44,323 nt of DNA from a bacterium (GTDB taxonomy: Bacteria; Patescibacteriota; Minisyncoccia; Phycocordibacterales; JAKEFN01). The notes beneath the pieces were generated by a model that did not search any database, was not told the DNA's origin, and saw nothing but the letters and a program-made list of their open reading frames with translations. The position numbers and the translations under genes are program-made. Shown in pieces: positions 1 to 44,323 of this stretch; position 1 is the stretch's first letter; every line of letters begins with the position of its first letter. The stretch lies in NCBI GenBank assembly GCA_022616085.1, contig JAKEFN010000096.1, positions 1-44,323 on the forward strand. The letters are read 5' to 3'.

Positions 1-99
1 AAAGCGAAGAATATTGTTGATATTTTGAGTCTTTCCGAGCCGCCGTTTGCAGCCCGCAACATGAATTCGCAGTAGTCAAGAGTTTTTGAACATGCTCTA
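1..99. repeat. Left copy of a ~99-bp inverted repeat; the partner is the last ~100 bp of the window
   Basis: Bases 1-99 read as the reverse complement of 44224-44321, apart from one apparent 1-nt indel (gagtctttcc vs gagctttcc). The repeat runs off the window edge, so its full length is unknown. Confidence 0.85.
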
Positions 100-3882: not shown

Positions 3883-5166
3883 TTAGCGCGGAAGGTTAAA
3901 CGGCGGCTCCGATTTCTTGGTTTCGATGCGGGCGAACGAAGGAGTCGTTACTGCGCTTGAAGGGAAGTGAAAAATAGTCGCAAGCTCCTCGGTATTGAGG
4001 ATTATAGGCGTTCGTGAATACGGCGCATGAAAATAGCTCCGCCGCCGGTATGCATCAATCATTTTACGCTTCTTAATGTTCGCGCGTATACCATTGAAAT
4101 CCTGCCACGGGTAATCGAAATCCGTCTCGCGGGTGAATTTGAACGCATTGAGGTCCATGGAACCGAATTGCTTGAATATATTCATAACACCAATAATGTT
4201 TTGGGATCGAAATGCGTGCGTCTTCGAGATATACATGACGCGGATACCGACATCAAAGCCGAGCTTCGAGATGCTCCGTTCGATGGCGTTAATCGTCTCC
4301 ATCTCCCCTTTCGTAAGGCGCCTATTCTCCACATCGGGCGGTATGGCGAGTTTTTGGACAAGCGCCTGGCCTTCCTCCCGCCAGTCAGTCGGTTTGCTGA
4401 AAAAAATTCCCTTGCGGGACGGCTTCGTCGCACGAAACATGATTTGAATCCAAAACTGCTCGTCTTTGCGTATAGAACCCAAAAACTCAATCACCGAAGC
4501 AAGCGGATCTATATATTGCTCCCTCTCCCTTATCTCGCCGCGATCCATGCCGTAATCGATATAGGTCCTAATGGGATAACAGTCCGGTTTGGTGAATTTA
4601 TACTCTGACCCCCACAGACCCCACTCTTCCCCTCCGGGATAGCCGTATGAGACATATTTCGTATAATCCGGAACTTCATGGATTTCGATAGTCGGAAACT
4701 GCGCATAAATATGAGACTCCACCCAGTTTTTGAATTCAGTCCGCGTCCAGATAAAATAATGCACCGTTCCTTCGATGGAAACCATCTCAAAAGAAAACCA
4801 TGTGCGCACCCTCCCTTGAACGCTCCGTTTGACCCAGGTGGATTCGCCGCTTGTGTTATGAAGCCCCGAAAGGACGATCTCCATGGCGAGCGGAGATTTT
4901 TCAACTTCCCGCGGCACCTTGAGTTCAAGCAGCGTATACGGCGTTGTGTGGATGAAGCGCGATCTGATATATCGCACCCAGGTATCCCAAAGCATCGCGC
5001 CGAGAATTATGGGGAGCCAGTACGGCGCGGTATAGGCGAACACGCGAAATATCTGGTTAACCGCATCTCCGTAGTATGCGCCGAGAAACGCATACAAACC
5101 GAAGCCGACAAGTATAAGCAAAATAATAAGCCCCAATACTGTCAAAATATCTTCAAGGATAGGCAT
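3883..5166 (-). CDS. Hypothetical membrane protein (two N-terminal TM helices, large soluble C-terminal part)
   Basis: The long ORF is 3883..5265. The start at M34 (MPILEDIL) is preferred because TGGTATAAT sits 7 nt upstream of that ATG. I do not recognise a family with confidence. Confidence 0.75.
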   Translation of the reverse strand: MPILEDILTVLGLIILLILVGFGLYAFLGAYYGDAVNQIFRVFAYTAPYWLPIILGAMLWDTWVRYIRSRFIHTTPYTLLELKVPREVEKSPLAMEIVLSGLHNTSGESTWVKRSVQGRVRTWFSFEMVSIEGTVHYFIWTRTEFKNWVESHIYAQFPTIEIHEVPDYTKYVSYGYPGGEEWGLWGSEYKFTKPDCYPIRTYIDYGMDRGEIREREQYIDPLASVIEFLGSIRKDEQFWIQIMFRATKPSRKGIFFSKPTDWREEGQALVQKLAIPPDVENRRLTKGEMETINAIERSISKLGFDVGIRVMYISKTHAFRSQNIIGVMNIFKQFGSMDLNAFKFTRETDFDYPWQDFNGIRANIKKRKMIDAYRRRSYFHAPYSRTPIILNTEELATIFHFPSSAVTTPSFARIETKKSEPPFNLPR

Positions 5167-5239: not shown

Positions 5240-5356
5240 AAACAAACGCAAAACGCAAAGCGCAAAACTCAAAAAAATAACACAAACCACAAAAGCATCC
5301 GCGTTTTTGGTTTTAAGATGAAGATTTGCGTTTTGAGTTTTGACTTTTGAGTTTGC
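5240..5356. repeat. A-rich imperfect hairpin element of the CAAAACTCAAAA family
   Basis: Intergenic. caaaacgcaaa pairs with tttgcgttttg. The right arm (about 5331-5356) is the reverse complement of a 24-nt string found inside topA (41456-41484). Confidence 0.6.
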
Positions 5357-5357
5357 T

Positions 5358-6395
5358 CTACCGCGCCGCCATATATCGCCCGTCTTTCCCTTTTTTGAAA
5401 TGCCGCCCGTTTTGAAGATTCACGAGAATCGTATTTTCTTTCACATACCGTTCTTTCAAAACGCGGTTGATGAGCTCGTCCTTATCAAGGGGGCCGCTTT
5501 TTTTCAAAATGTCCCGTATGACATCGCGCACGACGCCGCTCGAATATCCCCACTCGGTGAGAACATAAAGCCCGCGCCCGACAAGGACAAAGCGGCTGTC
5601 TTTGATAAGCTCGTTATGGCAGGTCGCCACATGCGCTTTCTTTCCAAAAAGCTCGGTAATCGATTTCGCCACTTCGGTAAAGTGCATGGGGGAGCCGTGC
5701 CGCCTGATGACAAGATACGCATAGTCGCGCATGCCGCGGGCGTTTACATTCGGACTGCTCGCATGCCCCCACTCCCCGAGTTTGTTTCTTCCAATCATCT
5801 TTGAAATAGCGAGCCACCGGCGAAGCGTCTCGTCGTTCTCTTTGTGGCGTTCGTCCACGGAACCGAGGTGTCCGCGAAACATTTTGATGAATTCCTGATC
5901 CGGAATAAGCGTTTCGGCATCCAAAGAAACGGCGAGCCGGCGAAGCGCCGCATAGACGTTTTGCGCAACCGCGTCATCCACGCTCCAACGATGCACGAAT
6001 TCGTCGTCCTCTTTATAACGGGAGAAAGAGTCTCCCAAGACCAGGAGGAAATACAGCTGGTTCTGCGTTTTCTTGCTATCGCTTAAATGAGAGAGAAGAT
6101 CTGCCTCTCCGACCACGGCGCCGAGCGATATAACCGTATCGTGGAGACCCTGAAGGCCGTCGTGCTCGTCTTCAAAGACGTCGGATCGCCGGATGGTATT
6201 GATCGCAAAATTCTCAATCTGGCGCACGCGCTCCCGCGTTATGCCATACTCATCCCCAATGGCCTCAAGCGTCATCTTTTGAGCCTCGTCATCAAGGCCA
6301 AAGCGCCGCACCACAATAGTCTGTGTGCGTTCCGGCAGGACTGAAAGGAATTTCTTTACAACCCCCTCGGGTTTGTTAAAAGGTTTCGTAGACAT
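5358..6395 (-). CDS. DNA-binding protein with an N-terminal sigma-70 region-4-like HTH and a C-terminal HARE-HTH-like domain
   Basis: MTLEAIGDEYGITRERVRQIE is a classic sigma region 4.2 HTH. The C-terminal part (MHFTEVAKSI...RFVLVGRGLYVLTEW) resembles the HARE-HTH/RpoE-delta N-domain. The ATG at M28 is preferred over the TTG at 6476. Confidence 0.8.
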   Translation of the reverse strand: MSTKPFNKPEGVVKKFLSVLPERTQTIVVRRFGLDDEAQKMTLEAIGDEYGITRERVRQIENFAINTIRRSDVFEDEHDGLQGLHDTVISLGAVVGEADLLSHLSDSKKTQNQLYFLLVLGDSFSRYKEDDEFVHRWSVDDAVAQNVYAALRRLAVSLDAETLIPDQEFIKMFRGHLGSVDERHKENDETLRRWLAISKMIGRNKLGEWGHASSPNVNARGMRDYAYLVIRRHGSPMHFTEVAKSITELFGKKAHVATCHNELIKDSRFVLVGRGLYVLTEWGYSSGVVRDVIRDILKKSGPLDKDELINRVLKERYVKENTILVNLQNGRHFKKGKDGRYMAAR

Positions 6396-6503
6396 ACTGA
6401 TTATGAATAAAAAGCTAATAAAACTATAGTTTATAACCTCATAGGAAAATCTAACACTATCCTTCTTTGCCGTCAAGAGATATCGGATATTCCCCCTACA
6501 GTA

Positions 6504-6665
6504 CTTTGAATTACGGAACTAAAGCCGTTACGAGAGTTTTTGGATTCGTGCGAGCCGAAACCGAACAATTTTTCGTTTAATGCCGTAGGTATTGCGAAAA
6601 ATTTTCGGGTTTGGCGTAGCCGAAGCCCAAAAAGTCGCAGTAGGACTTAGTTTCGTAATTCAAAG
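6504..6665. mobile_element. MITE-like palindromic element, copy 1 (162 bp)
   Basis: Terminal inverted repeats are ctttgaattacgGaactaa / ttagtttcgtaattcaaag, with a central ~50 nt identical to copy 2. It is flanked by the direct repeat tacagta (6497-6503 and 6666-6672). The leuS stop codon lies inside its right terminus. Confidence 0.85.
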
Positions 6666-9086
6666 TACAGTAACAATATTGAGGACTTTCCCGGGTATAT
6701 AGATAGTCTTCTTTACTTTTCCCGCGCCAACCCATTTTTTTATGCGTTCATCACGCAGCGCTTCTTCCAAAATCTCATTTTCTCTACTCGAAACTTGGGT
6801 GATAAGCGTGCCCCGCACCTTGCCATTCACCTGTATGGCGATAGTCTGCGCCTCGACGACGATTTTGTCCGCGTCATATAGAGGCCACGGCTCATGAAGA
6901 ATGGGGTGTTCATGGCCGAGCGACTCCCATATCTCTTCCGCGATGTGCGGCGCGAAGGGAGCAAGAAGCATCAAAAACGAAACGAAATAGTCAGTCGGAA
7001 TAGATCCTCGTTTCTCAAGCTCATTGCTAAAAATCATCATCTGCGAAATCGCCGTATTAAATCGCATCGCCTCAATGTCTTCCGAAACTTTTTTTATCGT
7101 CTGATGAAGAAGCGCTTCCAACTCTTTATCCGCCGTATCTGAAACTCCTTTATCAACTTTTTCGCGAAGCCCCCATACTTTTTCCAGAAAACGCCGCGGA
7201 CCAATAAGGCTATCTTCGCTCCAACCGATCGCCTGTTCAAATGGCCCCATAAACATTTCATACAAACGAAGCGTATCAGCTCCGTAGTGATCCACAATAT
7301 CGTCCGGATTGACAACGTTTCCTTTTGATTTGCTCATCTTGACCCCGCCTTCCGCGAGTATGAGTCCGTGTGATGTCCTCTTTGCGTAAGGTTCGGAGAC
7401 CGGCACTGCGCCAATATCAAACAAAAATTTATTCCAAAAACGCGAATAGAGGAGATGAAGCGTTGTGTGTTCCATTCCGCCGTTGTACCAGTCGACAGGC
7501 ATCCAATAATCAAGCTTTTCTTTATCCGCAAGCGCAGTCTTATTTTCTGTATCACAATACCGCAAAAAATACCATGACGATCCGGCCCAGTTCGGCATCA
7601 CATCCGTCTCGCGGCGAGCCGGACCGCCGCATTTCGGGCACGTTGTATTCACCCATTCGGCAATATTCGCAAGCGGCGACTCCCCGGTGTCGGTCGGCTC
7701 ATATTTTTGCACATCAGGGAGCACAACCGGCAGATCCTCTTCGGAAACCGGCGTCCAGCCACATTCCTTGCAAAAAATCATCGGTATGGGTTCTCCCCAA
7801 TAACGCTGGCGCGAAAAAACCCAATCGCGAAGTTTGTATGTCGTTTTTTGTTTTCCGCCGACAAATTCGATAATTTTCTTTTTCGCTTCTTCATTCGCCA
7901 TGCCATCAAATGCTCCTGATCCGACAAGATGCCCCGCCCCCGTGTAGGCATGATCGAGAACCGGACATGTTTTTTCCGGGTAATGAGGACACACAACCAT
8001 CTTTATCGGCAGATCATATTTTTTTGCAAACTCAAAATCCCGCTCGTCATGCGCGGGAACCGCCATGATGGCGCCGGTGCCGACATCGCCCAACACATAA
8101 TTGACAACCCACACCGGAATTTTTTCGCCGTTTGCAGGATTGACAGCAAAGATTCCCGCATCAACTCCTGTTTTTTCTTTTTCCTCGAAATCTCTCGCTC
8201 TGCGCGATGCAAATTCATTCGCCGCATACTTTTTCACCTCTTCGTTTGCCTGCCAGCCGATATCGAGCCATTTTTTTGCAAGATCGGGTGAAACTGCCAG
8301 AAACGTCGCGCCGAAAATAGTATCCGGCCTTGTGGTGAAGATTTTTACAGAATGTTTCCCGTCTTCCTGTCCTGGAATTCCCGAGAGCTTGAAATCAATT
8401 TCTGCACCATCGCTCTTCCCTATCCAATTTCTCTGCTGTGTTTTTATTTTCTCCAAATAATCCACGCTATCCAAATCTTTGAGCAGTCTGTCGGCGTATT
8501 TCGTGATTTTAAGCATCCATTGCTCTTTCTCGCGCTTCTCGGTCGCGCCGCCGCAACGCTCGCATTTCCCATCCACGACTTCTTCGTTCGCGAGGCCGAT
8601 TTTGCACGAAAAGCACCAGTTGATGGCTATTTTTGCCTTATACGCGAGTCCGTGTTTATACAATTGAAGAAAAATCCACTGGGTCCATATATAGTATGCG
8701 GGATCGCTTGTATTTATTTCGCGCGACCAGTCAAACGAGATGCCAAGCGCTTTGAGTTGGCGCCTGAAATTGTCGGTATTTTTTTTGGTAACCTCGCGGG
8801 GATGGATGCCCGTTTTGATGGCGTAGTTTTCGGTCGGAAGTCCGAATGCGTCCCAGCCTATGGGAAAAAGAACGTTATAGCCCTCGGCTCGGCGTTTCCG
8901 CGCTATCACATCCATTGCGGTATAGCTCCTCACGTGTCCGGCATGAATTCCGTCTCCTGATGGGTAGGGAAACTCAATAAGGCAATAATATTTTTTTTCA
9001 TTGCCGTCTTCCGCGCCGAATGAATTATCGCGCTCCCACCGCTCCTGCCACTTTTTTTCAATTTCTTTATGATCGTATTTCCGCAT
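6660..9086 (-). CDS. leuS: Leucyl-tRNA synthetase
   Basis: Class I aaRS with the HIGH-type motif (HAGH) and KMSKS, in typical LeuS architecture. The start at M14 (MRKYDHKEIEKKWQ) is preferred. The last codons and the TGA come from the MITE terminus. Confidence 0.95.
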   Translation of the reverse strand: MRKYDHKEIEKKWQERWERDNSFGAEDGNEKKYYCLIEFPYPSGDGIHAGHVRSYTAMDVIARKRRAEGYNVLFPIGWDAFGLPTENYAIKTGIHPREVTKKNTDNFRRQLKALGISFDWSREINTSDPAYYIWTQWIFLQLYKHGLAYKAKIAINWCFSCKIGLANEEVVDGKCERCGGATEKREKEQWMLKITKYADRLLKDLDSVDYLEKIKTQQRNWIGKSDGAEIDFKLSGIPGQEDGKHSVKIFTTRPDTIFGATFLAVSPDLAKKWLDIGWQANEEVKKYAANEFASRRARDFEEKEKTGVDAGIFAVNPANGEKIPVWVVNYVLGDVGTGAIMAVPAHDERDFEFAKKYDLPIKMVVCPHYPEKTCPVLDHAYTGAGHLVGSGAFDGMANEEAKKKIIEFVGGKQKTTYKLRDWVFSRQRYWGEPIPMIFCKECGWTPVSEEDLPVVLPDVQKYEPTDTGESPLANIAEWVNTTCPKCGGPARRETDVMPNWAGSSWYFLRYCDTENKTALADKEKLDYWMPVDWYNGGMEHTTLHLLYSRFWNKFLFDIGAVPVSEPYAKRTSHGLILAEGGVKMSKSKGNVVNPDDIVDHYGADTLRLYEMFMGPFEQAIGWSEDSLIGPRRFLEKVWGLREKVDKGVSDTADKELEALLHQTIKKVSEDIEAMRFNTAISQMMIFSNELEKRGSIPTDYFVSFLMLLAPFAPHIAEEIWESLGHEHPILHEPWPLYDADKIVVEAQTIAIQVNGKVRGTLITQVSSRENEILEEALRDERIKKWVGAGKVKKTIYIPGKVLNIVTVL

Positions 9087-10903: not shown

Positions 10904-11281
10904 TTAGAGATCATCAGGAGAGAGTCCGGTATGTTTTCCAATACGAGACAACATACGAGGACCAATCTCTTCACGATCATGAAATGCAAATGTCTTTGAA
11001 TTACGAAACTAAATTCGTTACGAGAGTTTTTGGCTTCGAGCGAACCGAACCAGAATAATTTTTCGTTTAATGCCGTAGGTATTGCGAAAAATTTTCGGGT
11101 TTGGCGCAGTCGAAGTCCAAAAGCTCGCAGCAGGATTTAGTTTCGTAATTCAAAGAAATGTATAATCCGGCCAACCGGTTCTGCCGAGTATACGGTGAGA
11201 GCCTTTCTGCCGTTTGATATGCCAGCCAAGGCGAAAAAGTGCGCCCAAAACATGTGATGCTTTAACGGCGCGCCATTCCAT
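10904..11281 (-). pseudogene. hicA: hicA toxin gene interrupted by MITE copy 2
   Basis: The N-fragment 11150..11281 encodes MEWRAVKASHVLGALFRLGWHIKRQKGSHRILGRTGWPDYTF, then L-stop from the MITE. The C-fragment 10904..10993 encodes TFAFHDREEIGPRMLSRIGKHTGLSPDDL-stop. Removing the element plus one aaatgt copy restores a 69-aa HicA-like ORF in frame. Confidence 0.85.
10994..11155. mobile_element. MITE-like palindromic element, copy 2 (162 bp)
   Basis: It has the same termini and central core as copy 1. The 6-bp direct repeat aaatgt lies at 10988-10993 and 11156-11161. It is inserted within hicA. Confidence 0.9.
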
Positions 11282-15447: not shown

Positions 15448-16656
15448 TCAAATCCTGTCTCTCTTTCTCCTGTGCCGCGAGAGCGAAAACCGGTGCGATT
15501 CGGCGTTCGCGAGAAATATTTCTTTTTCATGCGCGCGGATTGAAGCCTGATCTCCCAAAATCCCCTTTGCGCGGTGGCGTTCATCTTTAATTACGCTCAC
15601 CACGGGGATAAAAACGCCCGTGTTGTTGAGTGCTTTTTCCGCCGCGTTCAATTGCGCCTTCCCGCCGTCTACGACGATAAGGCGCGGGTATTTCCATTCA
15701 TGATGCGCCAAACGCCGATCAATAATCTCCGCAAGAGCGCGAGTATCATTTACTCCTTCAAAAGATTTGATATTAAACGTCCGGTATTCTTTTTTGTCCG
15801 GCACACCGTCCGTCACAACCGCCATGACGCCCACCGCATTTTTGCCGGATGTGTGCGCCACATCATACGCTTCAATGCGGAACGCCGCATGAGTCGCCGG
15901 CTCATTTTTGAGAAGCGCAACGTCGTGAATATGCTTGAGCGCGAAAATCGTGCGTTTCACTTCTTCCGCTTTTTCGAATTCTTGATTCTTTGCATCCGTT
16001 TTCATCTCCCTTTCAAGTTTTGAGATGAGCGTCTTTTTCTTTCCTTCAAAAAACATTTTTATATTTCGAATATTTTTTGCGTATTCTTTTGCCGTAATAG
16101 CGCCGCTGCACACGCCCGGACAGAGCCCGATCTGCGCGTTGAAGCACGGCTTCCCCGACTCCGGCGCGCATGAATCCCGAAATGGGATTATCTTTCGCAC
16201 GAGCTTAAGGGCAATTTTAAGATTTCCGCCCTGCGTAAATGGGCCGAATGAATACTGTATGAATTTTTTATCAAATTTTCCTTCAAGAAGTTCTCTCTGA
16301 CGCACAAGAAGGACGCGCGGAAATTCTTCTTTGGTGATAACGGCATAATTCCAGCTTTTGTCGTCTTTCTGGTCTGTGTTATAGGGCGGCTGATATTTCT
16401 TTATAAGCGCGGCTTCAAGAATAAGCGCTTCGAGGACAGAATCGGTTTTCTCAAAATCAACCGAGCGCGCAAGTTCAAGCATTTTGGCTATCTTCGGTCC
16501 CCGCGTTACGGCAATATCCTCGCGAAAATAGCTCCGCACGCGGTTTTTGAGCGATGCCGCCTTGCCGATATAGAGCTTCTTGCGCTTGTTTCCGAGAAAC
16601 ATATACACCCCAGGCGCATCAGGCAATTTCTTGAAATTTTTAAGAGAGATTGACAT
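15448..16656 (-). CDS. uvrC: Excinuclease ABC subunit C, short form
   Basis: GIY-YIG N-terminus (GVYMFLG...LYIGKA), a UvrBC-interaction-like centre and an endonuclease domain (VVDGGKAQL). At 402 aa, the C-terminal (HhH)2 region appears absent. Confidence 0.88.
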   Translation of the reverse strand: MSISLKNFKKLPDAPGVYMFLGNKRKKLYIGKAASLKNRVRSYFREDIAVTRGPKIAKMLELARSVDFEKTDSVLEALILEAALIKKYQPPYNTDQKDDKSWNYAVITKEEFPRVLLVRQRELLEGKFDKKFIQYSFGPFTQGGNLKIALKLVRKIIPFRDSCAPESGKPCFNAQIGLCPGVCSGAITAKEYAKNIRNIKMFFEGKKKTLISKLEREMKTDAKNQEFEKAEEVKRTIFALKHIHDVALLKNEPATHAAFRIEAYDVAHTSGKNAVGVMAVVTDGVPDKKEYRTFNIKSFEGVNDTRALAEIIDRRLAHHEWKYPRLIVVDGGKAQLNAAEKALNNTGVFIPVVSVIKDERHRAKGILGDQASIRAHEKEIFLANAESHRFSLSRHRRKRDRI

Positions 16657-16715
16657 AATTTATTAAATACAATACAGTACGGTCACATTTTATCCCAAAA
16701 AAAGGAGGGAACAAA

Positions 16716-16877
16716 ATGTCTACGGTGAGTTTGGCAGCCATTGCCGGTGTACTTGCTGGGAGCGGTGGAAGCCTACTAGGGCTTGGTGCCGTTTATAAAA
16801 TCCTTGGAGTTGGCATTTTGGGTGCGGGATTTTTAGCCGCAGGGGTTTATCTCGCGTCAACTCTAACCGCCTGTTAG
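16716..16877 (+). CDS. Small Gly/Ala-rich membrane protein (53 aa, below the ORF-track cutoff)
   Basis: Hand translation gives MSTVSLAAIAGVLAGSGGSLLGLGAVYKILGVGILGAGFLAAGVYLASTLTAC. A strong AAGGAGGG RBS lies upstream and a terminator follows. Confidence 0.65.
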   Translation: MSTVSLAAIAGVLAGSGGSLLGLGAVYKILGVGILGAGFLAAGVYLASTLTAC

Positions 16878-16902
16878 TGATTCTTTTATTTTGGTTTTTG
16901 AT

Positions 16903-16931
16903 AACCTGCCACCCGGCAGGCTTTTCTTTTC
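16903..16931 (+). terminator. Rho-independent terminator
   Basis: cctgcc-accc-ggcagg followed by cttttctttt. Confidence 0.7.
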
Positions 16932-16988
16932 TCATTATAAAACATTGTTATCCTACAAAAAATGACTTACAGTTTCAATAGATATAGT

Positions 16989-17070
16989 GCCGACGTGGCG
17001 GAATTGGTATACGCGCATGGCTTAGGACCATGTGCCGCAAGGCTTGTGAGTTCGAGTCTCACCGTCGGCA
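16989..17070 (+). tRNA. tRNA-Leu (anticodon TAG)
   Basis: Hand-folded cloverleaf. The acceptor is GCCGACG/CGTCGGC, and the anticodon stem CATGG/CCATG carries the loop CTTAGGA. It has a long variable arm, T arm GTGAG-TTCGAGT-CTCAC and discriminator A. No CCA is encoded. Confidence 0.9.
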
Positions 17071-17358
17071 TATTTGAACAAAGTGAAAAATGCCGCGGGG
17101 AGACTCGAACGGGAAGGGGGACGGGGAAACACCTGTTTCCACGTGGAGGAAGTTCACGAAACCGTGGGTTTCGTGAGAGCGAGGGACGAGCGACGTTTGA
17201 TTCTCACCGTCGGCATTTTGAATGCAATGAAAAATGCCGCGGAGAGGCTCGAACACGAAAGGGGTCGGGAAAACTGTAGTTTTCCCGTGGAGGAAGTTCA
17301 CGAAACCGAGGGTTTCGTGGGAGCGAGGGACGAGCGACGTTTGATTCTCACCGTCGGC
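17071..17358 (+). repeat. Two tandem 144-bp units, each ending in a degenerate copy of the tRNA-Leu 3' end
   Basis: The units start near 17071 and 17215. Each ends in tttgattctcaccgtcggcat, compared with ttcgagtctcaccgtcggcat in the tRNA. Both units contain two conserved hairpins. Confidence 0.85.
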
Positions 17359-17386
17359 ATATTGAATAGAAACAATACTCTCCCCG

Positions 17387-17423
17387 AAAAAAACGACATA
17401 CTCATGTCGTTTTTGTTTTTTTT
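17387..17423. terminator. Bidirectional rho-independent terminator
   Basis: acgacat-actc-atgtcgt is flanked by an A-run upstream and a T-run downstream. It serves the tRNA/repeat transcript (+) and the 17425 gene (-). Confidence 0.75.
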
Positions 17424-17424
17424 A

Positions 17425-17625
17425 TTACTTTCGCGCAAGCATAATCGCTGCCGCGATTACAATACCGGCAACCGCAATGCCTTCGCCAAGCGTCATGCTG
17501 GAGAAAAAATAAAGGATCCAGAGAAGCCCGACTAAAGGCAAAGCAAGGATTCCAACACCAACCAAACATAAAATAAGTACAATAAATGTTATGCCGACGA
17601 TTGCTTCCAATAGACCAGATCCCAT
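17425..17625 (-). CDS. Small membrane protein (66 aa)
   Basis: AGGAGG lies 8 nt upstream of the ATG for MGSGLLEAIVGITFIVLILCLVGVG... It sits directly downstream of creA. The longer track ORFs in this region lack an RBS. Confidence 0.65.
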   Translation of the reverse strand: MGSGLLEAIVGITFIVLILCLVGVGILALPLVGLLWILYFFSSMTLGEGIAVAGIVIAAAIMLARK

Positions 17626-17641
17626 AATCCATACCTCCTGC

Positions 17642-18136
17642 TTACTTGCCGTCTGCAAAGAGCGGGACTGTTGAGATTGAATTCTTCGGCGAACCTTCAA
17701 TAATCTTGTCCGAATAGACAAGATAGATGAGCGCATGCACATTAGGATCGTACATCCGCACGACGTGAAGCTCCTTGAATAAAGGAGACGTTTTCTGGGA
17801 AAAAACTTCTTTTTGCCGAGAAACATCAAGACATCCGCCGGGCGGAGTTGCAGAATCAACCTGACCCTGGCAAATATTGCCAATCGGCGCCGTTTGCCTG
17901 CACGCGATAGAAGCATTGGACGGATCCTCTGCAAGTCCGACAGCGCCTGTCAAACCGCCCGCTTGCGCGTGGCTCATATGGCAGGTGATCCCGCCAATAT
18001 CAGGATCGTAAAAACCCTGAACAATGATCTTATCATTCGGTCCGGTGAACCGAAACGTCGTATCAACAGACCCGATATCCCACGCAAAAACGTACGCAGA
18101 AAAAAGGAGACTAAACATGCAAAGAATTTTTCCCAT
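17642..18136 (-). CDS. creA: CreA family protein
   Basis: Signal peptide plus a pattern typical of CreA (PF05981-like): FTGPNDKIIVQGFYDPDIGGITCHMSHAQAGG...ASIACRQ...LVYSDKIIEGSPKNSIS. Confidence 0.85.
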   Translation of the reverse strand: MGKILCMFSLLFSAYVFAWDIGSVDTTFRFTGPNDKIIVQGFYDPDIGGITCHMSHAQAGGLTGAVGLAEDPSNASIACRQTAPIGNICQGQVDSATPPGGCLDVSRQKEVFSQKTSPLFKELHVVRMYDPNVHALIYLVYSDKIIEGSPKNSISTVPLFADGK

Positions 18137-24244: not shown

Positions 24245-24279
24245 CTTTAACTCTAGACTTACGAAGTCTAGAGTTAAAG
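24245..24279. repeat. REP-like perfect hairpin (16-bp stem)
   Basis: ctttaactctagactt-acg-aagtctagagttaaag. Confidence 0.85.
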
Positions 24280-24291
24280 GCATTAACTACC

Positions 24292-24987
24292 TTACTCTAA
24301 CATCATGACTTTATAATCAGGGCTGTCATCGATACTGAAATTTTTAAGCTCTTCTTTAACGGATTTCCGGTATTTTTCTTCTCCGCCAAAAAAATCAAGA
24401 AAATATCCTCTTTGGGTTACTGCCGGGAAATTTTTCTTTCCAAGGTAGTCCAGATGACTGCTCCAGCGATAATTTTCAAGGAAAGAAAGCGCGTCATTGG
24501 TGTTTTTAATTTTTCGGCCCCGCCAATCATGGCCTGATAAATCAAGCGGATTGAAATGAATATAATAAGGGATAAAAAGAAAATGACGGTCGTTTTCTAT
24601 ATAAAACCTCTTAAATCTCCCCTGGAATAAAGCTCCCACCCTTTGATATTTCTCGTTGAAATATTTTGCATATCCTATATTGAGCTTTGTCATAAATTTT
24701 GTAATACCCCCATCGATAACCGGAGAGAGAAGAAGATGATAGTGGTTTGGCATCAAAGCGAAACAATGAATGTTCACCAAAAGTTCACGCGGTTCTTTTT
24801 TTTGATCATAATATTTCAAACCCCTTTCAAGGTTCTGCGCAAAATAAAAATTATTTGAAGAGGCCTTCGATCGATCGTTGAACTCAAACAAATCGTGAAC
24901 GAAACGAAAATAGTCTTTCTTGTCATTAAAAATTAACCGCTTGTCAACACCGCGGTTGAGAACATGATAAAATTCCATATTTTGCAT
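24292..24987 (-). CDS. IS200-like / REP-associated tyrosine (Y1) transposase
   Basis: YHVLNRG...CFALMPNHYHLLL (HUH motif)...GALFQGRFKRF...YIHFNPL fits the Y1_Tnp (PF01797) pattern. It is 231 aa. Confidence 0.88.
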   Translation of the reverse strand: MQNMEFYHVLNRGVDKRLIFNDKKDYFRFVHDLFEFNDRSKASSNNFYFAQNLERGLKYYDQKKEPRELLVNIHCFALMPNHYHLLLSPVIDGGITKFMTKLNIGYAKYFNEKYQRVGALFQGRFKRFYIENDRHFLFIPYYIHFNPLDLSGHDWRGRKIKNTNDALSFLENYRWSSHLDYLGKKNFPAVTQRGYFLDFFGGEEKYRKSVKEELKNFSIDDSPDYKVMMLE

Positions 24988-25001: not shown

Positions 25002-25026
25002 ACTCTAGACTTCGTAAGTCTAGAGT
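25002..25026. repeat. REP-like hairpin, inverted copy
   Basis: actctagactt-cgt-aagtctagagt. Confidence 0.85.
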
Positions 25027-26206: not shown

Positions 26207-29200
26207 TCATTTTTTTGCAACCAAATGAAGCAGTATGCTCTTCCCCCCGACTTCCGCTTTTTCGCCTTTCTCCAAATCGACAAAGCGCATATCCGAAAGC
26301 CCTGCGGCTTTTTTGAGATACTCCAAAGAATCCGCCAAATCCTCTTCGACAGTGCGGCTTATTTCGAGAACGGCGCGGTCGGACGGCGCAAGCGCCGCAA
26401 TCTTCCGAAGCCCTTGTATGCTCCGGAGTATTTCTCTCAAATCTCCTTCTTTTTTGAGCGCCGGCGTAATTTCGGTGTCAAGCGTTACCTCCGCCGCATC
26501 GCCGAAACGGGCATCCTTCACATTCACCTCGTCGAGCACGACCTCGATAGTATTCGGAAGACTCCATGCGTTCGGGATCGTTACCTTTCCGAGCGGCTGT
26601 CTCACGCGAATGCCCGCGCGGCTCCGCTTCTCGAGGATGACATTCACGGCATCGCGCGCACGGCCCATCTCCGCGATAATTTTTTCTTCATGTCCGGAAA
26701 AATCCTCGCTCCACCATTCTGCGAGGTGAACGCTCTCGGGATCGCTCTCGCCGCGAACCTCCCTGTATACGCGCTCGGCGATAAACGGCATGAAGGGGGC
26801 GATTATTTTTGAAAAATTCAAAAGAACGAAGCGGGTCGTTCGAAGAGCGCGGAGAGTGTCTTCGCGGTCGTCTCCTTTAAAGCGTTCGCGCGAACGGCGA
26901 AGATACCATGTGGAGAGGTCATCGATAAAAAGACCGATGGGGCGCACCGCCGCCTCGATATCATACGCGTCCATCTGTTCGGCTACACCGATCGAAAGTT
27001 CGCGGAGCCGCGCGAGAATCCACTGGTCGAGAACGTGCCCGCTCTCGCGCTCCGAATCCCCCACATCGAACGATCCCTTGTAAAGCATGTAAAAAGAAAG
27101 CACGTTATCAAGCCGAAGTATGTTTTTTTTATAAATCTCGTCGACTCCCTTTTCGGAAAAATGAAGGTCTTCTGATTTCATAATCGGAGAGGAGAAGAGA
27201 TAGAGCCGAAGGGCGTCAACGCCGTATGTGTCGATGAGAATGTTCGGATCGGGAAAATTCCCTTTTGATTTGGACATTTTTGCGCCGTCTTCGGCGAGAA
27301 CAGTGCCGGTCGTTACGATATTTTTGAATGGAATCTCATCAAACAAAATAACGGAAATAACGTGCGTATAATAAAACCATGTTCTCGTCTGGGCGATATA
27401 TTCAGCGACAAAATCCGCCGGAAAATTCCGCTTTTCAAATTCTTTCTTGTTCTCGAACGGATAGTGGAACTGCGCGAACGGCATGGAGCCTGATTCGAAC
27501 CAGCAGTCAACCACTTCGGAGATGCGCCGCATTACTCCGCCGCATCCTGCCGAATCGCAGGGCCAGACAAACGCATCAATATAGGGCCGATGGAGATCAA
27601 GCTCATAATTCCTATTATGAGGGAACGGCGCGTATTCGATCGCGCGGACGTCGGCGTTCCCAAAAATCGAGTATTTGCCTCCCCAAAGATCCGCCGCCGC
27701 GGAGTCGTCGAGTCCCCGCGCCGCCGCGAGAAGAAGCCCCATGGGCGCGTCATGCATGACAAAAAGAATGTTCTTTCCTTCATGGGAATCCTCAAAAGAA
27801 ACGAGAGCGTCGCCTATTCGTTTTTTTATGTCATGGTAGTCTTCGCCGCCGATTTTCTCGGTGAAGCGATCTTTTACCGATTTGAAATGCCGATGGTATT
27901 CGTCCACGGATTTCCCTTCGAATGTTCCGCCGGATACTTCGCGAATCCGATCATCTATATGAAGCGCGCTCTCCGGAAGGCCAAGCTCCTCGCGCATAAT
28001 CTCCGCAGTTTCCCGCGCCCGAAGAATCGGAGAGGAAACGATAAGATCAATTGCCGCCTCTTTCTTCAATTTCGATGCGGCGGATTTTGATTGATCCCGT
28101 CCCAAAGGCGTCAGATGATGAGCATCTTCTTGGAGGGTGCCGAGAGTGTTTTTTACATTATTTTCGGACTCGCCGTGCCGCATGGCGAAATATCTGTTCC
28201 GAGGCTTCACTCGCTTCTTTAGATCGTCAAGCGAACCCATGACTTCAATCGCGCCGCACGCAGAGCATTTCCAAAAAGGAAGCGGAGACGCCCAGAAACG
28301 ATTGCGGGAGATGTTCCAATCCGGCGCGCTTTCGACTATTTTTTTATATCGGCCCTCTTTCAAATGCTCCGGAATCCAGTTGATTTTTTCATTTGTTTTG
28401 AGGACGCGGTTCTTTATCGGATCGATTTTGATGAACCATGCCGGCAAGGCGTAATAGAGAAGCGGCGTTTCGCACCGAAAACAATGCGGGTATGAATGCT
28501 TGATTGTTTCTTTTGCAAAAAGCGCCCCGCGAACGGCGAGAGACCTAAGCATCTCTATATCGGCGGCTTTGTGATTGTCTTTCGGCTTCACCGGTATCCC
28601 TTGGAACAGTGGCTCTCCGGATACATCGGCAAAATTGTCTTTGAATTTTCCCTCGGGAGTCACGTGCCAAACGATCGGCAGATTTTCTTTCTTCGCGAGA
28701 CTCATATCATCCTCCCCGAACGCGGGAGCGATGTGGACGATTCCCGTTCCTTCATCCGTTGTTACGAAATCGGCGCCATACACCTTCCAGCCGTTCTCGC
28801 GGTTTTTCAAATTCTTTTCTTTCTCATAATAGCCAAAAAGCGGTTTATATTTTTTACCGATGAGGTCTCGACCGGAAAATTCATCCGTTATTGCTAATCT
28901 TATTTGTTTAAAAATAAACGCTCCGTCCCCCTCTCTGTATTTTTCATCATCCAGAATATTTTTTGCCACAATAACAAATTTTTCTTCCGATGAAACAAGA
29001 CCATGCGTATTCGATCCGGCAAAAACTTTCGCTTTCACATAAACAATCTCCGGATTCACCGCAAGCGCGGTATTCCCCGGCAATGTCCACGGAGTGGTCG
29101 TCCACGCAAGGAGATATGTCCCGGGCAGATCGGCAAGCTCAAACTTCACATACGCCGAAATGTCGCTTATATCCTTATAGCTTCCGTCCATCGCAATTTC

Positions 29201-29785
29201 CGCATTTGCAATAGGCGTCTCGCACCGCGGGCAATACGGAAGAACGCGCGTTCCTTCATAGATGAAACCTTTGCCCCAAATTTCTTTAAGCGCCCACCAG
29301 ACAGACTCGATAAACGTATTGTCCATCGTCTTGTATGATCCGTCAAAATCAACCCACCGCCCGATCCGCTCCACCGTTTTTTTCCATTCCGCGGCATAAG
29401 CAAGGACGGACCCGCGCGCGCGTTCATTGAATATATCCACCCCGAGTTTTTCTATCTCGCGCTTGCCCGAAATTTTCAAATCCTTTTCCACGATGTTCTC
29501 AATCGGAAGCCCGTGGCAATCCCATCCCCACACGCGCCGGACAGAACGCCCTTTCATGGTCTTGTAGCGCGGTATGGCGTCTTTAATGACGCTCGCAAGA
29601 ATATGTCCGTAATGCGGAAGACCGGTCGCAAATGGAGGGCCGTCGTAGAAAACAAAAGGCTTCCCGTCCTTCGTCTTTTCAAGCGTTTTTTCAAAAATCC
29701 CATTTCCGCGCCAAAAAGAGAGCGTTTCCTCCTCGCGAAGCGCCACAGCGGATTTTTTGGTTTTTTTTGCTTCATTTTCAGCCAT
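26207..29785 (-). CDS. ileS: Isoleucyl-tRNA synthetase with an internal histidine-phosphatase-like domain
   Basis: HIGH-type PHYGH, KMSKS, a CP1 editing region (TTTPWTLPGN) and a 1192-aa length. Residues ~529-722 (RYFAMRHGESENN...) look like a phosphoglycerate-mutase-family module. Confidence 0.93.
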   Translation of the reverse strand: MAENEAKKTKKSAVALREEETLSFWRGNGIFEKTLEKTKDGKPFVFYDGPPFATGLPHYGHILASVIKDAIPRYKTMKGRSVRRVWGWDCHGLPIENIVEKDLKISGKREIEKLGVDIFNERARGSVLAYAAEWKKTVERIGRWVDFDGSYKTMDNTFIESVWWALKEIWGKGFIYEGTRVLPYCPRCETPIANAEIAMDGSYKDISDISAYVKFELADLPGTYLLAWTTTPWTLPGNTALAVNPEIVYVKAKVFAGSNTHGLVSSEEKFVIVAKNILDDEKYREGDGAFIFKQIRLAITDEFSGRDLIGKKYKPLFGYYEKEKNLKNRENGWKVYGADFVTTDEGTGIVHIAPAFGEDDMSLAKKENLPIVWHVTPEGKFKDNFADVSGEPLFQGIPVKPKDNHKAADIEMLRSLAVRGALFAKETIKHSYPHCFRCETPLLYYALPAWFIKIDPIKNRVLKTNEKINWIPEHLKEGRYKKIVESAPDWNISRNRFWASPLPFWKCSACGAIEVMGSLDDLKKRVKPRNRYFAMRHGESENNVKNTLGTLQEDAHHLTPLGRDQSKSAASKLKKEAAIDLIVSSPILRARETAEIMREELGLPESALHIDDRIREVSGGTFEGKSVDEYHRHFKSVKDRFTEKIGGEDYHDIKKRIGDALVSFEDSHEGKNILFVMHDAPMGLLLAAARGLDDSAAADLWGGKYSIFGNADVRAIEYAPFPHNRNYELDLHRPYIDAFVWPCDSAGCGGVMRRISEVVDCWFESGSMPFAQFHYPFENKKEFEKRNFPADFVAEYIAQTRTWFYYTHVISVILFDEIPFKNIVTTGTVLAEDGAKMSKSKGNFPDPNILIDTYGVDALRLYLFSSPIMKSEDLHFSEKGVDEIYKKNILRLDNVLSFYMLYKGSFDVGDSERESGHVLDQWILARLRELSIGVAEQMDAYDIEAAVRPIGLFIDDLSTWYLRRSRERFKGDDREDTLRALRTTRFVLLNFSKIIAPFMPFIAERVYREVRGESDPESVHLAEWWSEDFSGHEEKIIAEMGRARDAVNVILEKRSRAGIRVRQPLGKVTIPNAWSLPNTIEVVLDEVNVKDARFGDAAEVTLDTEITPALKKEGDLREILRSIQGLRKIAALAPSDRAVLEISRTVEEDLADSLEYLKKAAGLSDMRFVDLEKGEKAEVGGKSILLHLVAKK

Positions 29786-33638: not shown

Positions 33639-33924
33639 ATCCAATAAGCGCGACCGGCGGCGCGTATAAAATTATACCACAGGTTTCAGAAGTCCCGGAC
33701 GATTAAAAAGTTTATAATAGAGCCCTATGTACGCCGCCTCTGCACCTCCCATACATAATAATAATTATTGGGGGAATGCACCCCACACGGATTAAGCCGG
33801 TCAAAAGATAAATCCCCCTCCGATTCTTCCTCTCCAAGATGTCTCCACACGACCGGCATAAGTTCCCTATAAAACCACCCCCATTCTATGACGGTTTTGC
33901 CGACATCTTTTTATTTTATCTTCC

Positions 33925-34296
33925 TTAATCCTCGTGCTTCACCGCGATAGCAAGAATCTCCTTGGCGATTTTTTCGGCGGCATTGGCACTCTGAGCATCA
34001 ACTAAAATAAGACCCTTGCCGTCAAACGCCTGAAAACGACCAGTCTCCGAGGACGAAATAATAACGGCTTTCCCCGAAAAAAATCCCTCATTTTCGTGGA
34101 AAACCTTTAGCGTATCTTCTTCCAGTACATCATCAATTACGATTGCTCCGAAATCATTATTGTGCGCGTTCAATGTTCCTTTGCGAAGAGAACCAAAATG
34201 CGCAACCGATATCGACTCTGAACTGACGCGCTCCCGTATTTTTTCCACAAATTGAGCGTCCGGCGATACGATAAGTATTTTTTTTGTATCTGTCAT
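33925..34296 (-). CDS. Hypothetical receiver-domain-like protein with a C-terminal 18 aa copied from MurG
   Basis: KKILIVSPD...AIVIDDVLEED resembles a CheY-like fold (tentative). The last 18 aa, AAEKIAKEILAIAVKHED, equal the MurG C-terminus. Confidence 0.65.
   Translation of the reverse strand: MTDTKKILIVSPDAQFVEKIRERVSSESISVAHFGSLRKGTLNAHNNDFGAIVIDDVLEEDTLKVFHENEGFFSGKAVIISSSETGRFQAFDGKGLILVDAQSANAAEKIAKEILAIAVKHED
33927..33983. repeat. 57-bp direct repeat, copy 1 (duplicate of the murG 3' end)
   Basis: aatcctcgtgcttcaccgcgatagcaagaatctccttggcgattttttcggcggcat is identical to 35404-35460. Confidence 0.9.
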
Positions 34297-35385: not shown

Positions 35386-35401
35386 CTTAATTTTTGATTT
35401 C

Positions 35402-36529
35402 TCAATCCTCGTGCTTCACCGCGATAGCAAGAATCTCCTTGGCGATTTTTTCGGCGGCATCGGTGTGCCCGAAGGCGCGCGCGGCTACACTCATTTTTTG
35501 AAACTCTATGGGATTCTTGAATAAGCGGTCTATTTCGGAGATCAAAACATGCGGGGTCAAATTCTCTTCCTCTATCACAATCGCACCCCCCTCCCGCGCA
35601 TAATTATACGCGTTGGTTACCTGATCGCGGCTGATCTCTCTGTGTATCGGTATGATAATGGCCGGTATTCCCCAAACGGCAATCTCAAAAAGCGTCGAAC
35701 CACCGCGCGTGATAATAATATTCGCAATGCCCGCCGCCATGCGAAGAGCCAAGTCGTCTAGATATCCAAACGGCTTATAGCGATGCGCGAATTCGCTTCG
35801 TTCAAGCGCAACCGCCGCCGTGCCTTTAACCTCTTCTATATTTTTTTCGCCGGTCTGATGCACGACTTGATAACGCTTCAAGAGTTCGGGAAGCGTGTCA
35901 AGAATGGCGTCGTTGACGCGCTCCGCTCCTTGCGAACCGCCGAGCACCAGCAAAACGGGGATATCCGCTTCGAGCTTAAGATACTCATGCGCTCCTTCTT
36001 TTATGGGATGCATAACTTCAGATCTTATGGGATTGCCCGTATAGGCGACTTTTTCACTCGGAAAGCGTTTTGCCGCCTCGGGATATGAAACGGCAATCCG
36101 CTTGGCGAATTCGGCCGCCCATAGATTGACGCGCCCGGGAACGGAATCGGATTCGTGAATGAGCACCGGGATTTTGAGAAGCCGCGCGGCGACAAGCGTC
36201 GGGAAGCTCGCGTAGCCTCCCTTCCCCACAACAATATCGGGATACACGTTGTAGAGCTTTACGATCGCTACAAAAATACCGAAAATTGTTTTGAATATAT
36301 CCGGAACATTTTTAAAGGAAAAATATATACGCGCTTTCCCCGCAGGAACCCATTCATATGTTATGTCATGCTTATACAAAAGACCCTCGTCATAGAGCGA
36401 ATCGGAAAAAAAATAAAGATGCACGCCGATGAGGCTTTTTTTGTCGGATTCTTTGTAAAGAGCCTCGGCGATCGCAATAATCGGATAAAAATGACCGCCG
36501 GAGCCGCCGGTTGTAAAAACAATCTTCAT
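35402..36529 (-). CDS. murG: UDP-N-acetylglucosamine--N-acetylmuramyl-(pentapeptide) pyrophosphoryl-undecaprenol GlcNAc transferase
   Basis: MKIVFTTGGSGGHFYPIIAIAEAL and the GT28 architecture. It is 375 aa. Confidence 0.95.
   Translation of the reverse strand: MKIVFTTGGSGGHFYPIIAIAEALYKESDKKSLIGVHLYFFSDSLYDEGLLYKHDITYEWVPAGKARIYFSFKNVPDIFKTIFGIFVAIVKLYNVYPDIVVGKGGYASFPTLVAARLLKIPVLIHESDSVPGRVNLWAAEFAKRIAVSYPEAAKRFPSEKVAYTGNPIRSEVMHPIKEGAHEYLKLEADIPVLLVLGGSQGAERVNDAILDTLPELLKRYQVVHQTGEKNIEEVKGTAAVALERSEFAHRYKPFGYLDDLALRMAAGIANIIITRGGSTLFEIAVWGIPAIIIPIHREISRDQVTNAYNYAREGGAIVIEEENLTPHVLISEIDRLFKNPIEFQKMSVAARAFGHTDAAEKIAKEILAIAVKHED
35404..35460. repeat. 57-bp direct repeat, copy 2 (native murG 3' end)
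   Basis: Identical to 33927-33983. Confidence 0.9.
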
Positions 36530-40127: not shown

Positions 40128-40214
40128 CGCCCAAACTCAAAGTTCAAAGTTCAAAACTCAAAACTAAAACGCACACGCAGTTTTGACATTTGAGATTTGA
40201 ACTTTGAGTTTGGG
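40128..40214. repeat. 87-bp near-perfect hairpin of the CAAAACTCAAAA family
   Basis: The arms gcccaaactcaaagttcaaa...tttgaactttgagtttgggc lie between serS and dprA. Confidence 0.8.
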
Positions 40215-40233
40215 CATCCCGTGCTACAAAGCA

Positions 40234-44223: not shown

Positions 44224-44323
44224 TAGAGCATGTTCAAAAACTCTTGACTACTGCGAATTCATGTTGCGGGCTGCAAACGGCGGCTCGGAAAGCTCAAAAT
44301 ATCAACAATATTCTTCGCTTTCC
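44224..44323. repeat. Right copy of the ~99-bp inverted repeat (partner of 1-99)
   Basis: The reverse complement of 44224-44321 matches 1-99. Its inner end forms a 32-bp perfect palindrome with the preceding 16 nt. Confidence 0.85.

Follow-up and report, generated by a model that had tools for sequence, protein, structure and literature searches.

Tandem repeats behind a Patescibacteria tRNA-Leu gene: a structured, multi-copy family built like the E. coli tRNA-linked repeats

The tRNA-linked repeats (TLRs) of Escherichia coli, first seen in tyrT in 1978, are present in 22 copies at ten loci, one to five per locus, in tRNA or rRNA operons, and each ends in 18–19 bp that are the same as those closing the gene directly before it (PMC8144298). 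They have no known function except that RrA, RrB and RrF, which are transcribed and processed (RNase E being proposed for RrB), bind Hfq and CsrA (PMC8144298). Here, we describe a tandem repeat that directly follows the tRNA-Leu(UAG) gene of a Patescibacteria bacterium, on a DNA stretch of 44,323 nt (GCA_022616085.1, contig JAKEFN010000096.1; hereafter the window). Each of its two 144-bp units contains a 125-nt element which, in our reading, is probably a non-coding module of the TLR type. The element belongs to a family in Patescibacteria that is real, structured and multi-copy, that is of TLR type without detectable homology to the E. coli repeats, and that corresponds to no known RNA family.

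The K-12 repeats provide the reference for this comparison. In tyrT (178-bp repeats, 3.14 copies), four repeats each end in AATCCTTCCCCCACCACCA, and the annotated RttR RNA (RtT, RF00391) ends exactly at the CCA of the first one. The 5' arm of the tyrT repeat, GGGGAAGGAT, pairs with ATCCTTCCCC around several hairpins, and the arms of the argVYZQ repeat (GGGAGGAT/ATCCTCCC) match tRNA-Arg. A core, AACGTTGC...GCAACGGCCCGAAGGG, is common to argVYZQ, tyrT and the 5S-linked rrnB repeat. No clear 5' arm was seen in the latter, and the rule of a stem closed by two tRNA-matching arms is therefore claimed only for the tRNA-linked TLRs examined, tyrT and argVYZQ.

The window contains a single tRNA gene, a class II tRNA-Leu(UAG) on the plus strand in which CCA is not encoded, called at 16,988–17,071 by ARAGORN (anticodon tag) and at 16,989–17,070 by the Rfam tRNA model (59.1 bits). 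Tandem Repeats Finder (TRF) reports an array at 17,050–17,368 with a period of 144, 2.2 copies, 86% matches and a score of 475, starting inside the T-loop of the tRNA, and a repeat search aligns 17,073–17,216 with 17,217–17,360 at 87% identity. The final 21 nt of the tRNA (17,050–17,070, GTTCGAGTCTCACCGTCGGCA) are the template of all arms in the window. The 15-mer TCTCACCGTCGGCAT occurs exactly three times, at 17,057, 17,202 and 17,346, i.e. at the end of the tRNA and of each unit; none of 100 shuffles gave five or more matches to it at up to three mismatches. In both units the copy of the tRNA 3' end is exact over these 15 nt and matches at 19 of 21 positions, and a 25-nt block, GTTCGAGTCTCACCGTCGGCATATT, returns at 17,195 (88%) and 17,339 (92%). 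Identity with the tRNA begins at the T-loop G53-T54-T55 and continues past the 3' end, the direct repeat extending ~8 nt into the trailer (TATTTGAA, TTTTGAA and TATTGAA, respectively). The A/T-rich trailer is thus itself part of the repeat unit: spacer 1 (17,071–17,090, TATTTGAACAAAGTGAAAAA) is copied as spacer 2 (17,216–17,234, TTTTGAATGCAATGAAAAA), and the start of a third, partial spacer (17,360–17,368, TATTGAATA...) ends the array, all on the plus strand.

Behind the second unit stands a terminator-like hairpin on the plus strand (about 17,389–17,424; hairpin with T-run at 17,389–17,414) with an 11-bp stem, preceded by an A-run and followed by a T-run, which could terminate both the transcript of the tRNA and units and that of the convergent minus-strand genes. 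The terminator scan of the locus gave no such hairpin to separate the units from the tRNA. Misassembly does not account for the array, since independent Logan contigs of run X1 cross the tRNA–unit 1 passage (6,095 nt), the unit 1–unit 2 junction (89 nt, covering 17,187–17,275 with 0 differences) and the exit from unit 2 into the downstream genes (12,517 nt). The arrangement that an earlier note had read from the letters, i.e. a tRNA-Leu(UAG) gene, two 144-bp tandem units ~85–90% identical, a tRNA 3'-end copy with a tail at the end of each and a terminator after the second, is hence borne out in all its parts.

Each unit is composed of a 19–20-nt A/T-rich spacer and a 125-nt element. Copy 1 (17,091–17,215, plus strand) consists of a 5' arm (17,091–17,110), the junction J1/2, the hairpin P2 (17,122–17,143), a linker (TGGAGGAAG, 17,144–17,152), the hairpin P3 (17,153–17,177), a 3' module (17,178–17,194) and a 3' arm (17,195–17,215). 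Copy 2 (17,235–17,359, plus strand) repeats this order, with the 5' arm at 17,235–17,254, P2 at 17,266–17,287, the linker at 17,288–17,296, P3 at 17,297–17,321, the 3' module at 17,322–17,338 and the 3' arm at 17,339–17,359. P2 has 9 bp and a 4-nt loop, P3 has 11 bp and a 3-nt loop, the core linker between them is purine-rich (GGAGGAAG) and the 3' module is 17 nt long.

One feature is absent from the earlier note: the element opens with 20 nt (TGCCGCGGGGAGACTCGAAC) that reverse-complement the tRNA 3' end, T-loop included, but for one missing base. The same ~21 nt of the tRNA are thus present twice, inverted at the 5' end of the element and in direct orientation at its 3' end. In the window units, the two arms form a closing stem of ~19 bp with 16–17 Watson–Crick and 1–2 G-U pairs, one bulged T and two mismatches, of which the outer 12 positions reproduce the acceptor stem of tRNA-Leu stacked on its T stem (the ‘top half’ of the tRNA). 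The arm duplex has an energy of −24.6 kcal/mol in copy 1 and −23.3 kcal/mol in copy 2, versus −11.0 ± 2.8 kcal/mol for shuffled arms (reached by 0 and 1 of 500 shuffles, respectively). Folded alone, each unit adopts this closing stem, with −55.7 kcal/mol and a z-score of −3.9 for copy 1 and −49.1 kcal/mol and −2.1 for copy 2.

The two units differ at 19 positions, all within the first 105 nt (spacer, 5' arm, J1/2, P2 and P3), the final 39 nt being identical. As the earlier note had seen, the first hairpin carries paired changes (17,122–17,143 versus 17,266–17,287), with a compensatory A-U to G-C change in P2, and the second keeps its stem and varies in the loop alone (17,153–17,177 versus 17,297–17,321). 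An open reading frame (ORF) at 17,074–17,535 spans both units, 144 being 3 × 48. It does not code: the differences between the units are 4 synonymous versus 15 non-synonymous in its frame and relatives of the element at three other loci (L003, L004 and L005, introduced below) carry an in-frame TAG. Protein matches to the translated units were confined to the window's own ORF and one 34-aa ORF lying over another copy of the element. With no synonymous bias, a stop codon in relatives and a frame that is not conserved, we rejected a protein-coding gene; the elements instead give rise to spurious ORF calls (P0001 in the window and P0242).

An exact-pattern scan for P3 across species-representative genomes recovered three further loci, L003 and L005 in one Saccharibacteria metagenome-assembled genome (MAG) and L004 in an unclassified MAG. 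A further copy, L016, lies on a JGI contig and was reached through its 34-aa spurious ORF by an exhaustive HMMER search with the translated units; a word-indexed protein search with the same queries returned the window alone, and the cluster look-up gave no additional copy. The scan of one set of metagenome contigs yielded a single locus, L006, which duplicates L003. Beyond the window's own, the hairpin core was counted in four lineages. Pattern scans for P3 and P2 in IMG/VR viral contigs did not find the family, and an nhmmer search of the window with the family profile gave no copy beyond the two units. Scanning 16,500–17,900 with Rfam at E ≤ 10 detected only the tRNA, and scans of three relatives at gathering thresholds only tRNAs.

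Aligning six copies (both window units, L003, L004, L005 and L016), we found that a 73-nt core, reaching from where the 5' arm stops to the far side of P3, is 88% identical, in host genomes of 35–54% GC. Compensatory double changes are present at 5 of the 20 base pairs of P2 and P3, and 98.3% of the alignment cells are paired; 1 of 500 column shuffles was as good, and slid controls gave 0–1 such pairs. The case for selection on RNA structure, which the earlier note had drawn from two units, holds and is strengthened by these counts. The four one-sided changes that keep a pair in P2 and P3 are all G-U or U-G on the plus strand (pair 47–71 is U-A, U-G or C-G in different copies), which supports a structure read on the plus strand, that of the tRNA. 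The relatives carry a third interior hairpin in addition to P2 and P3. Across the family the arms form 16–20 Watson–Crick pairs per element, with duplex energies matched or beaten by 0–14 of 500 shuffles.

The arms differ among all lineages compared; where a tRNA gene stands upstream they copy its end, a match seen at two loci. In the window, the element begins 20 nt past tRNA-Leu and has the same orientation. The distance to the preceding tRNA-Arg(UCG) gene is 43 nt in L004, where 20 of 21 positions of the 3' arm agree with the end of that tRNA and the 5' arm can pair with the 3' arm, likewise leaving a single-base bulge, 3–4 bp from the helix end. The arms of L003, which is cut by the contig end, and of L005 resemble tRNA ends. 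In the source metagenome, the k-mer depth of the core is 120–205 versus 14.5 in the flanks (about 8–14×), and contig ends entering the core in runs X1–X4 bear at least three other 5' arms (TGCGGGACTAGGACTCGAAC, TGCCGTAAATGGCTCGAAC and TGTGCCGAGGGGCGGATTCGAAC), each the reverse complement of a T-loop/T-stem/acceptor end. The TGTGCCGAGGGGCGGATTCGAAC arm stands in a 3-kb contig at a depth of 15.2, that of the window's genome. Overall, these data indicate that the family is multi-copy in Patescibacteria, with a conserved core and arms tailored to different tRNAs.

Several further observations were made on or beside family members. Contigs of run X8 (labelled ‘metatranscriptomic WGA’, possibly DNA; marine sediment) match the last part of the 5' arm and P2 exactly or almost exactly (at 17,248–17,294) and continue after P2 with a different 3' part, GAGCAGGCAAAGCCGTTGAAAACAGCGAGC, which suggests mosaic relatives with swapped 3' modules. 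In L005, a second element of ~150 nt (519–670) directly follows the family member, with a perfect AT-rich hairpin in between; it has the same tRNA-like arms (...CTTCCGCCTCCGCA) around an unrelated, weakly folding core. Hairpins of a similar AT-rich kind stand ahead of the elements in both L004 and L005. In L016, a 47-nt sequence, GGCCTTTTCATTTTCAATGCAGACAGGTTCGAMCGTCTTTCACCATT, is present at 4,912–4,958 and 5,515–5,560 after two different terminator hairpins and contains a T-arm-like GGTTCGA motif.

The likeness to the E. coli TLRs lies in the design. As in E. coli, the window element stands directly behind a tRNA gene in the same orientation, in an array whose 2.2 copies compare with one to five per locus there, and its 3' end copies the 3' end of the upstream tRNA (18–19 bp in E. 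coli; 15 nt exact and 19 of 21 here; 20 of 21 in L004). As in tyrT and argVYZQ, the 3' arm pairs with a complementary 5' arm and the two enclose a core of several hairpins; this core is common to different loci, the arms being fitted to the tRNA of the locus. The rule that the core is conserved, the arms match the upstream tRNA and the 5' arm complements the 3' arm thus holds in both families. Both also have a spurious or tiny ORF annotated inside (tpr in E. coli, P0001 here). Unlike the E. coli repeats, the window element has a different core (P2, GGAGGAAG, P3), a longer closing stem of ~19 bp that includes the paired T-loop, no encoded CCA, a host from the phylum Patescibacteria and some copies that are not beside a tRNA, and it is known here from DNA alone. 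The Rfam RtT model, which scores 133–137 bits on tyrT and 31 bits on a TLR of the arg operon (membership threshold of RF00391, 45 bits), has no match at E ≤ 10 in 16,500–17,900, so that the element is not a member of the RtT family, and nhmmer with a profile of the new family gave no match at the E. coli TLR loci. By these searches, the two families have no detectable sequence homology.

tRNA minihelices are substrates of RNase P, RNase Z and the CCA-adding enzyme, and MALAT1/mascRNA exemplifies tRNA-like 3'-end processing signals on non-tRNA transcripts. Like such signals, a helix imitating the acceptor/T-stem stack on a longer RNA could recruit the enzymes of tRNA end processing; unlike them, the window element has neither T-loop nor cloverleaf, the T-loop bases being paired to their antisense copy, and its helix has a bulge and mismatches. 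Since no terminator separates the tRNA from the units, we propose that a single transcript, started at the tRNA promoter, covers both the tRNA and the element. Owing to its tRNA-like helix, a stable RNA of ~125–145 nt would then be excised from it by tRNA end-maturation enzymes: RNase P would make the 5' cut, RNase Z or exonucleases would act at the discriminator, and CCA might be added afterwards. This proposal is based on the imitation of the acceptor/T-stem stack by the closing helix and on two precedents, the 3' end of RttR and the RNase E proposal for RrB (PMC8144298). The two copies may have arisen by unequal recombination between copies of the tRNA 3' end, which would also homogenise the 3' 39 nt. 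The released RNA could be a selfish hitch-hiker on strong tRNA promoters or a small RNA that binds protein through its GGA-rich linkers; these single-stranded linkers recall the CsrA-binding RrB, and this is only a lead. Among the explanations offered by the earlier note, a tRNA-linked structured non-coding RNA fits best and agrees with the E. coli TLR/RtT precedent, its transcription and tRNA-type processing being predicted.

A number of observations weigh against this interpretation. In the RNA runs, matches were to the tRNA only; the units were in none, nor was L003. The T-loop bases of the 3' arm are mutated (GTTTGATTC), and evidence for the strand is weak in the closing stem, with 4 G-U versus 2 A-C. 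The 3' arm is conserved better than the pairing and the direct repeat runs ~8 nt past the tRNA end, which points to a DNA-level duplication rather than to selection on a processing signal; for these same two reasons, the matching of arms to each tRNA would seem to involve a step at the DNA level. Linkage to tRNA is not obligatory, because two of the four assessable loci have no tRNA directly upstream: L005 has none within 340 nt, and L016 is separated by 1.1 kb from the nearest one and has a degenerate closing stem, its P2 and P3 and a P4 hairpin being intact. The element is also dispensable, since a sister strain (L007, described below) has lost the core. Lastly, the minimum-energy fold of the whole transcript is in a shifted register (−179.7 versus about −156 kcal/mol for the self-closed one), in which each 5' arm pairs with sequence ahead of its own unit: that of unit 1 with the 3' half of the tRNA, that of unit 2 with the 3' arm of unit 1. 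This shifted register, also favoured in L004, could reflect an interplay with tRNA folding or be a thermodynamic shadow of the repeats.

Taken at face value, the shifted register would make the array a regulator of tRNA maturation: the 5' arm, antisense to the 3' half of the tRNA, would either be locked by the element's own 3' arm, so that the tRNA stays free, or invade the tRNA and misfold the precursor, so that the array tunes the amount of mature tRNA-Leu(UAG). We hold this to be quite improbable. The predicted gain over the self-closed register is about 24 kcal/mol with the same preference in L004, the 5' arms match the T-loop of the tRNA (GTTCGAG) better than they match the 3' arms of the units (GTTTGAT), and the sister strain retains exactly the tRNA, the spacer and the 5' arm; the argument is, however, one of thermodynamics only, the tRNA is favoured by tertiary contacts and by folding during transcription, and orphan copies without a tRNA exist (L005 and L016). 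An origin by neutral tandem duplication of the tRNA trailer, through slippage or unequal crossing-over and with neither function nor family, would account for the strain-variable copy number and for the identical 3' 39 nt, and is nonetheless hardly credible, being contradicted by a core that is 88% conserved with compensatory changes over six copies, from at least five lineages of 35–54% GC and at different tRNAs, at 8–14× the depth of the flanks in the metagenome. A tRNA-derived short interspersed nuclear element, suggested by the earlier note, was rejected, as the units have no tRNA body and are called neither by ARAGORN nor by the Rfam tRNA model; only the last ~21 nt are tRNA-like, and what survives of that suggestion is the multi-copy dispersed family behind it.

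Two other readings invoke DNA mobility. Folded single-stranded att sites are known from CTX-phi, where attP1 and attP2 are two inverted sites 90 nt apart, and from integron attC sites with their extrahelical bases. The window element resembles them in its inverted arms about 85–90 nt apart, its imperfect duplex copy of the target, its extrahelical bases and its tandem arrays; it differs in that the sequence targeted is not dif or attI but the 3' end of a tRNA, that no recombinase or phage gene was found nearby and that the sequence of its core is conserved, whereas in attC the structure alone is. The element could accordingly be a miniature site-specific integrative element, or its scars, in which the tRNA 3'-end copies are attL/attR-type blocks of a tyrosine-recombinase-type event, the inverted arm and the ~85-nt core fold into a single-stranded mimic of the duplex target, and the tandem copies record repeated integrations. 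Such a history would explain why identity spans from the T-loop G-T-T to ~8 nt past the tRNA, a nearly exact 3' arm in an imperfect pairing, the conserved-looking single-base bulge of the window and L004, 4–5 bp from the helix end, a presence and copy number that vary among strains, and the occurrence at different tRNAs. We nevertheless rate it as rather improbable: Pfam scans of the large ORFs tested in the window and beside L003, L004 and L005 returned housekeeping genes and no integrase, Xer-like recombinase, phage gene or reverse transcriptase (integrase and cargo are absent, too, from the precomputed Pfam annotation of L001 and L007), the family was not found on IMG/VR viral contigs, a circle of 144 bp would be very short to recombine, in L007 the sequence was replaced imprecisely rather than excised at the repeats, and intermediates that are G-U on one strand favour RNA. 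The reiterated att scars of the earlier note are not supported by the same Pfam result, and a 73-nt core shared between different tRNAs is unlike random scars.

The remaining reading, very improbable in our view, takes the element for a palindromic DNA repeat akin to miniature inverted-repeat transposable elements (MITEs) or REPINs, moved in trans by a single-stranded-DNA transposase and transcribed incidentally. A candidate transposase would be that of a RAYT-like gene 7 kb away (24,292–24,987, minus strand), the sole mobile-element-like gene found, and the inverted terminal arms, the length of 125–160 nt, the intergenic position and the many copies in the community suit this idea, as does the presence in the same window of such a gene between perfect 25-nt hairpins and, elsewhere, of a MITE whose terminal inverted repeats measure 26 nt. 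Ends recognised by a transposase are conserved, however, and here the arms vary by copy and follow the local tRNA; the loci have no common target-site pattern, nhmmer gave no further copy in the window, and the hairpins at the RAYT-like gene share no sequence with the element, for which reason a link between the two was rejected.

The array is dispensable and dynamic. The sister strain L007 (GCA_022615705.1) keeps uvrC, a small ORF, tRNA-Leu, the spacer and the first 18 nt of the 5' arm, after which about 59–62 unrelated nt replace 17,108–17,654, followed by creA; a contig of run X4 has the same joint (17,107→17,655). This strain-variable block (17,108–17,654) takes in the terminator and a 66-aa membrane ORF as well as unit 2 and the greater part of unit 1. 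Runs X2 and X3 contain a joint that goes back 144 nt with a variant spacer, which suggests a different arrangement of units, perhaps with an extra one, in other strains. The earlier note had listed absence or slippage-like copy-number variation of the units, together with the lack of a transcript, among the grounds for giving up the structured-RNA idea; the variation is there, but that consequence does not follow, as the structure is conserved at other loci. The organism is nearest to Paceibacterota/Parcubacteria, with only ~60% identity in the release factor. In relatives at this ~60% level, the L25–SLT–L31–release factor order is kept and then gives way to S2/EF-Ts and a tRNA-Thr without a downstream copy of its end, so that no homologous tRNA-Leu locus was available for comparison.

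On the other side of the array, the 66-aa membrane ORF (17,425–17,625, minus strand), absent from the sister strain, lies next to CreA (17,642–18,136, minus strand), which has no close relatives apart from that strain. The nearest homologues of CreA, at ≤58% identity, are proteobacterial where named (Nitrosomonas, Magnetococcales), and as the neighbouring release factor is nearest to Paceibacterota, CreA was probably acquired horizontally.

Other features of the window are independent of the element. The RAYT-like ORF, of 231 aa, resembles Y1/IS200-like and REP-associated tyrosine transposases (30 bits to PF01797; 31 bits to NF047646, below the model cutoff; HUH motif HYHLLL) and is flanked by perfect 25-nt palindromic hairpins in inverted orientation (24,250–24,274 and 25,002–25,026). 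A MITE-like repeat of ~170 nt occurs in two copies that are 89% identical (6,497–6,672 and 10,990–11,162), with 25–26-nt terminal inverted repeats, TACAGTACTTTGAATTACGGAACTAA. Intergenic arrays of the heptamers AAACTCA/AAACGCA (complement TTTGAGT) at 5,243–5,363, 40,129–40,215 and 41,451–41,496 form long imperfect palindromes, e.g. 37-nt arms 13 nt apart at 40,129–40,215. A 77-nt direct repeat, 91% identical (33,910–33,986 and 35,387–35,463), is found near the 3' side of two minus-strand ORFs of a cell-wall cluster, one copy overlapping the end of a MurG-like ORF. The minus-strand ORF at 26,207–29,785 encodes a class I aminoacyl-tRNA synthetase of 1,192 aa (tRNA-synt_1, Anticodon_1) with a His_Phos_1 domain at residues 534–699. 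The two ends of the window (1–99 and 44,224–44,321) are exact inverted repeats (69 + 29 nt, 100%); either the assembly halted at a repeat there or it created the repeat as an artefact.

One practical consequence is that the elements interrupt short-read assemblies at tRNA loci, as shown by Logan contigs that stop within the units and by L003 and L006, which break off at one and the same base. As a second, non-homologous family obeys the rule, the TLR architecture is not an enterobacterial oddity: the same design is found in E. coli and in ultra-small Patescibacteria, and is either selected or the product of a general mechanism. From the TLR-type reading we predict processing of the RNase P/RNase Z type at the mimic helix, retargeting of the arms and competition with tRNA folding. 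A bolder proposal, which we consider on the whole unlikely, is that TLR-type elements are a phylum-spanning class of stable-RNA parasites or regulators whose core acquires antisense and sense copies of the local tRNA 3' end, implying a retargeting process that is not known to have been described and a register-shift control of tRNA maturation. If true, retargeting would be templated, e.g. by copy-choice, fold-back synthesis or RNA- or single-stranded-DNA-guided integration with the 5' arm as guide, and the shift between the self-closed form and invasion of the tRNA would control the maturation of the host tRNA.

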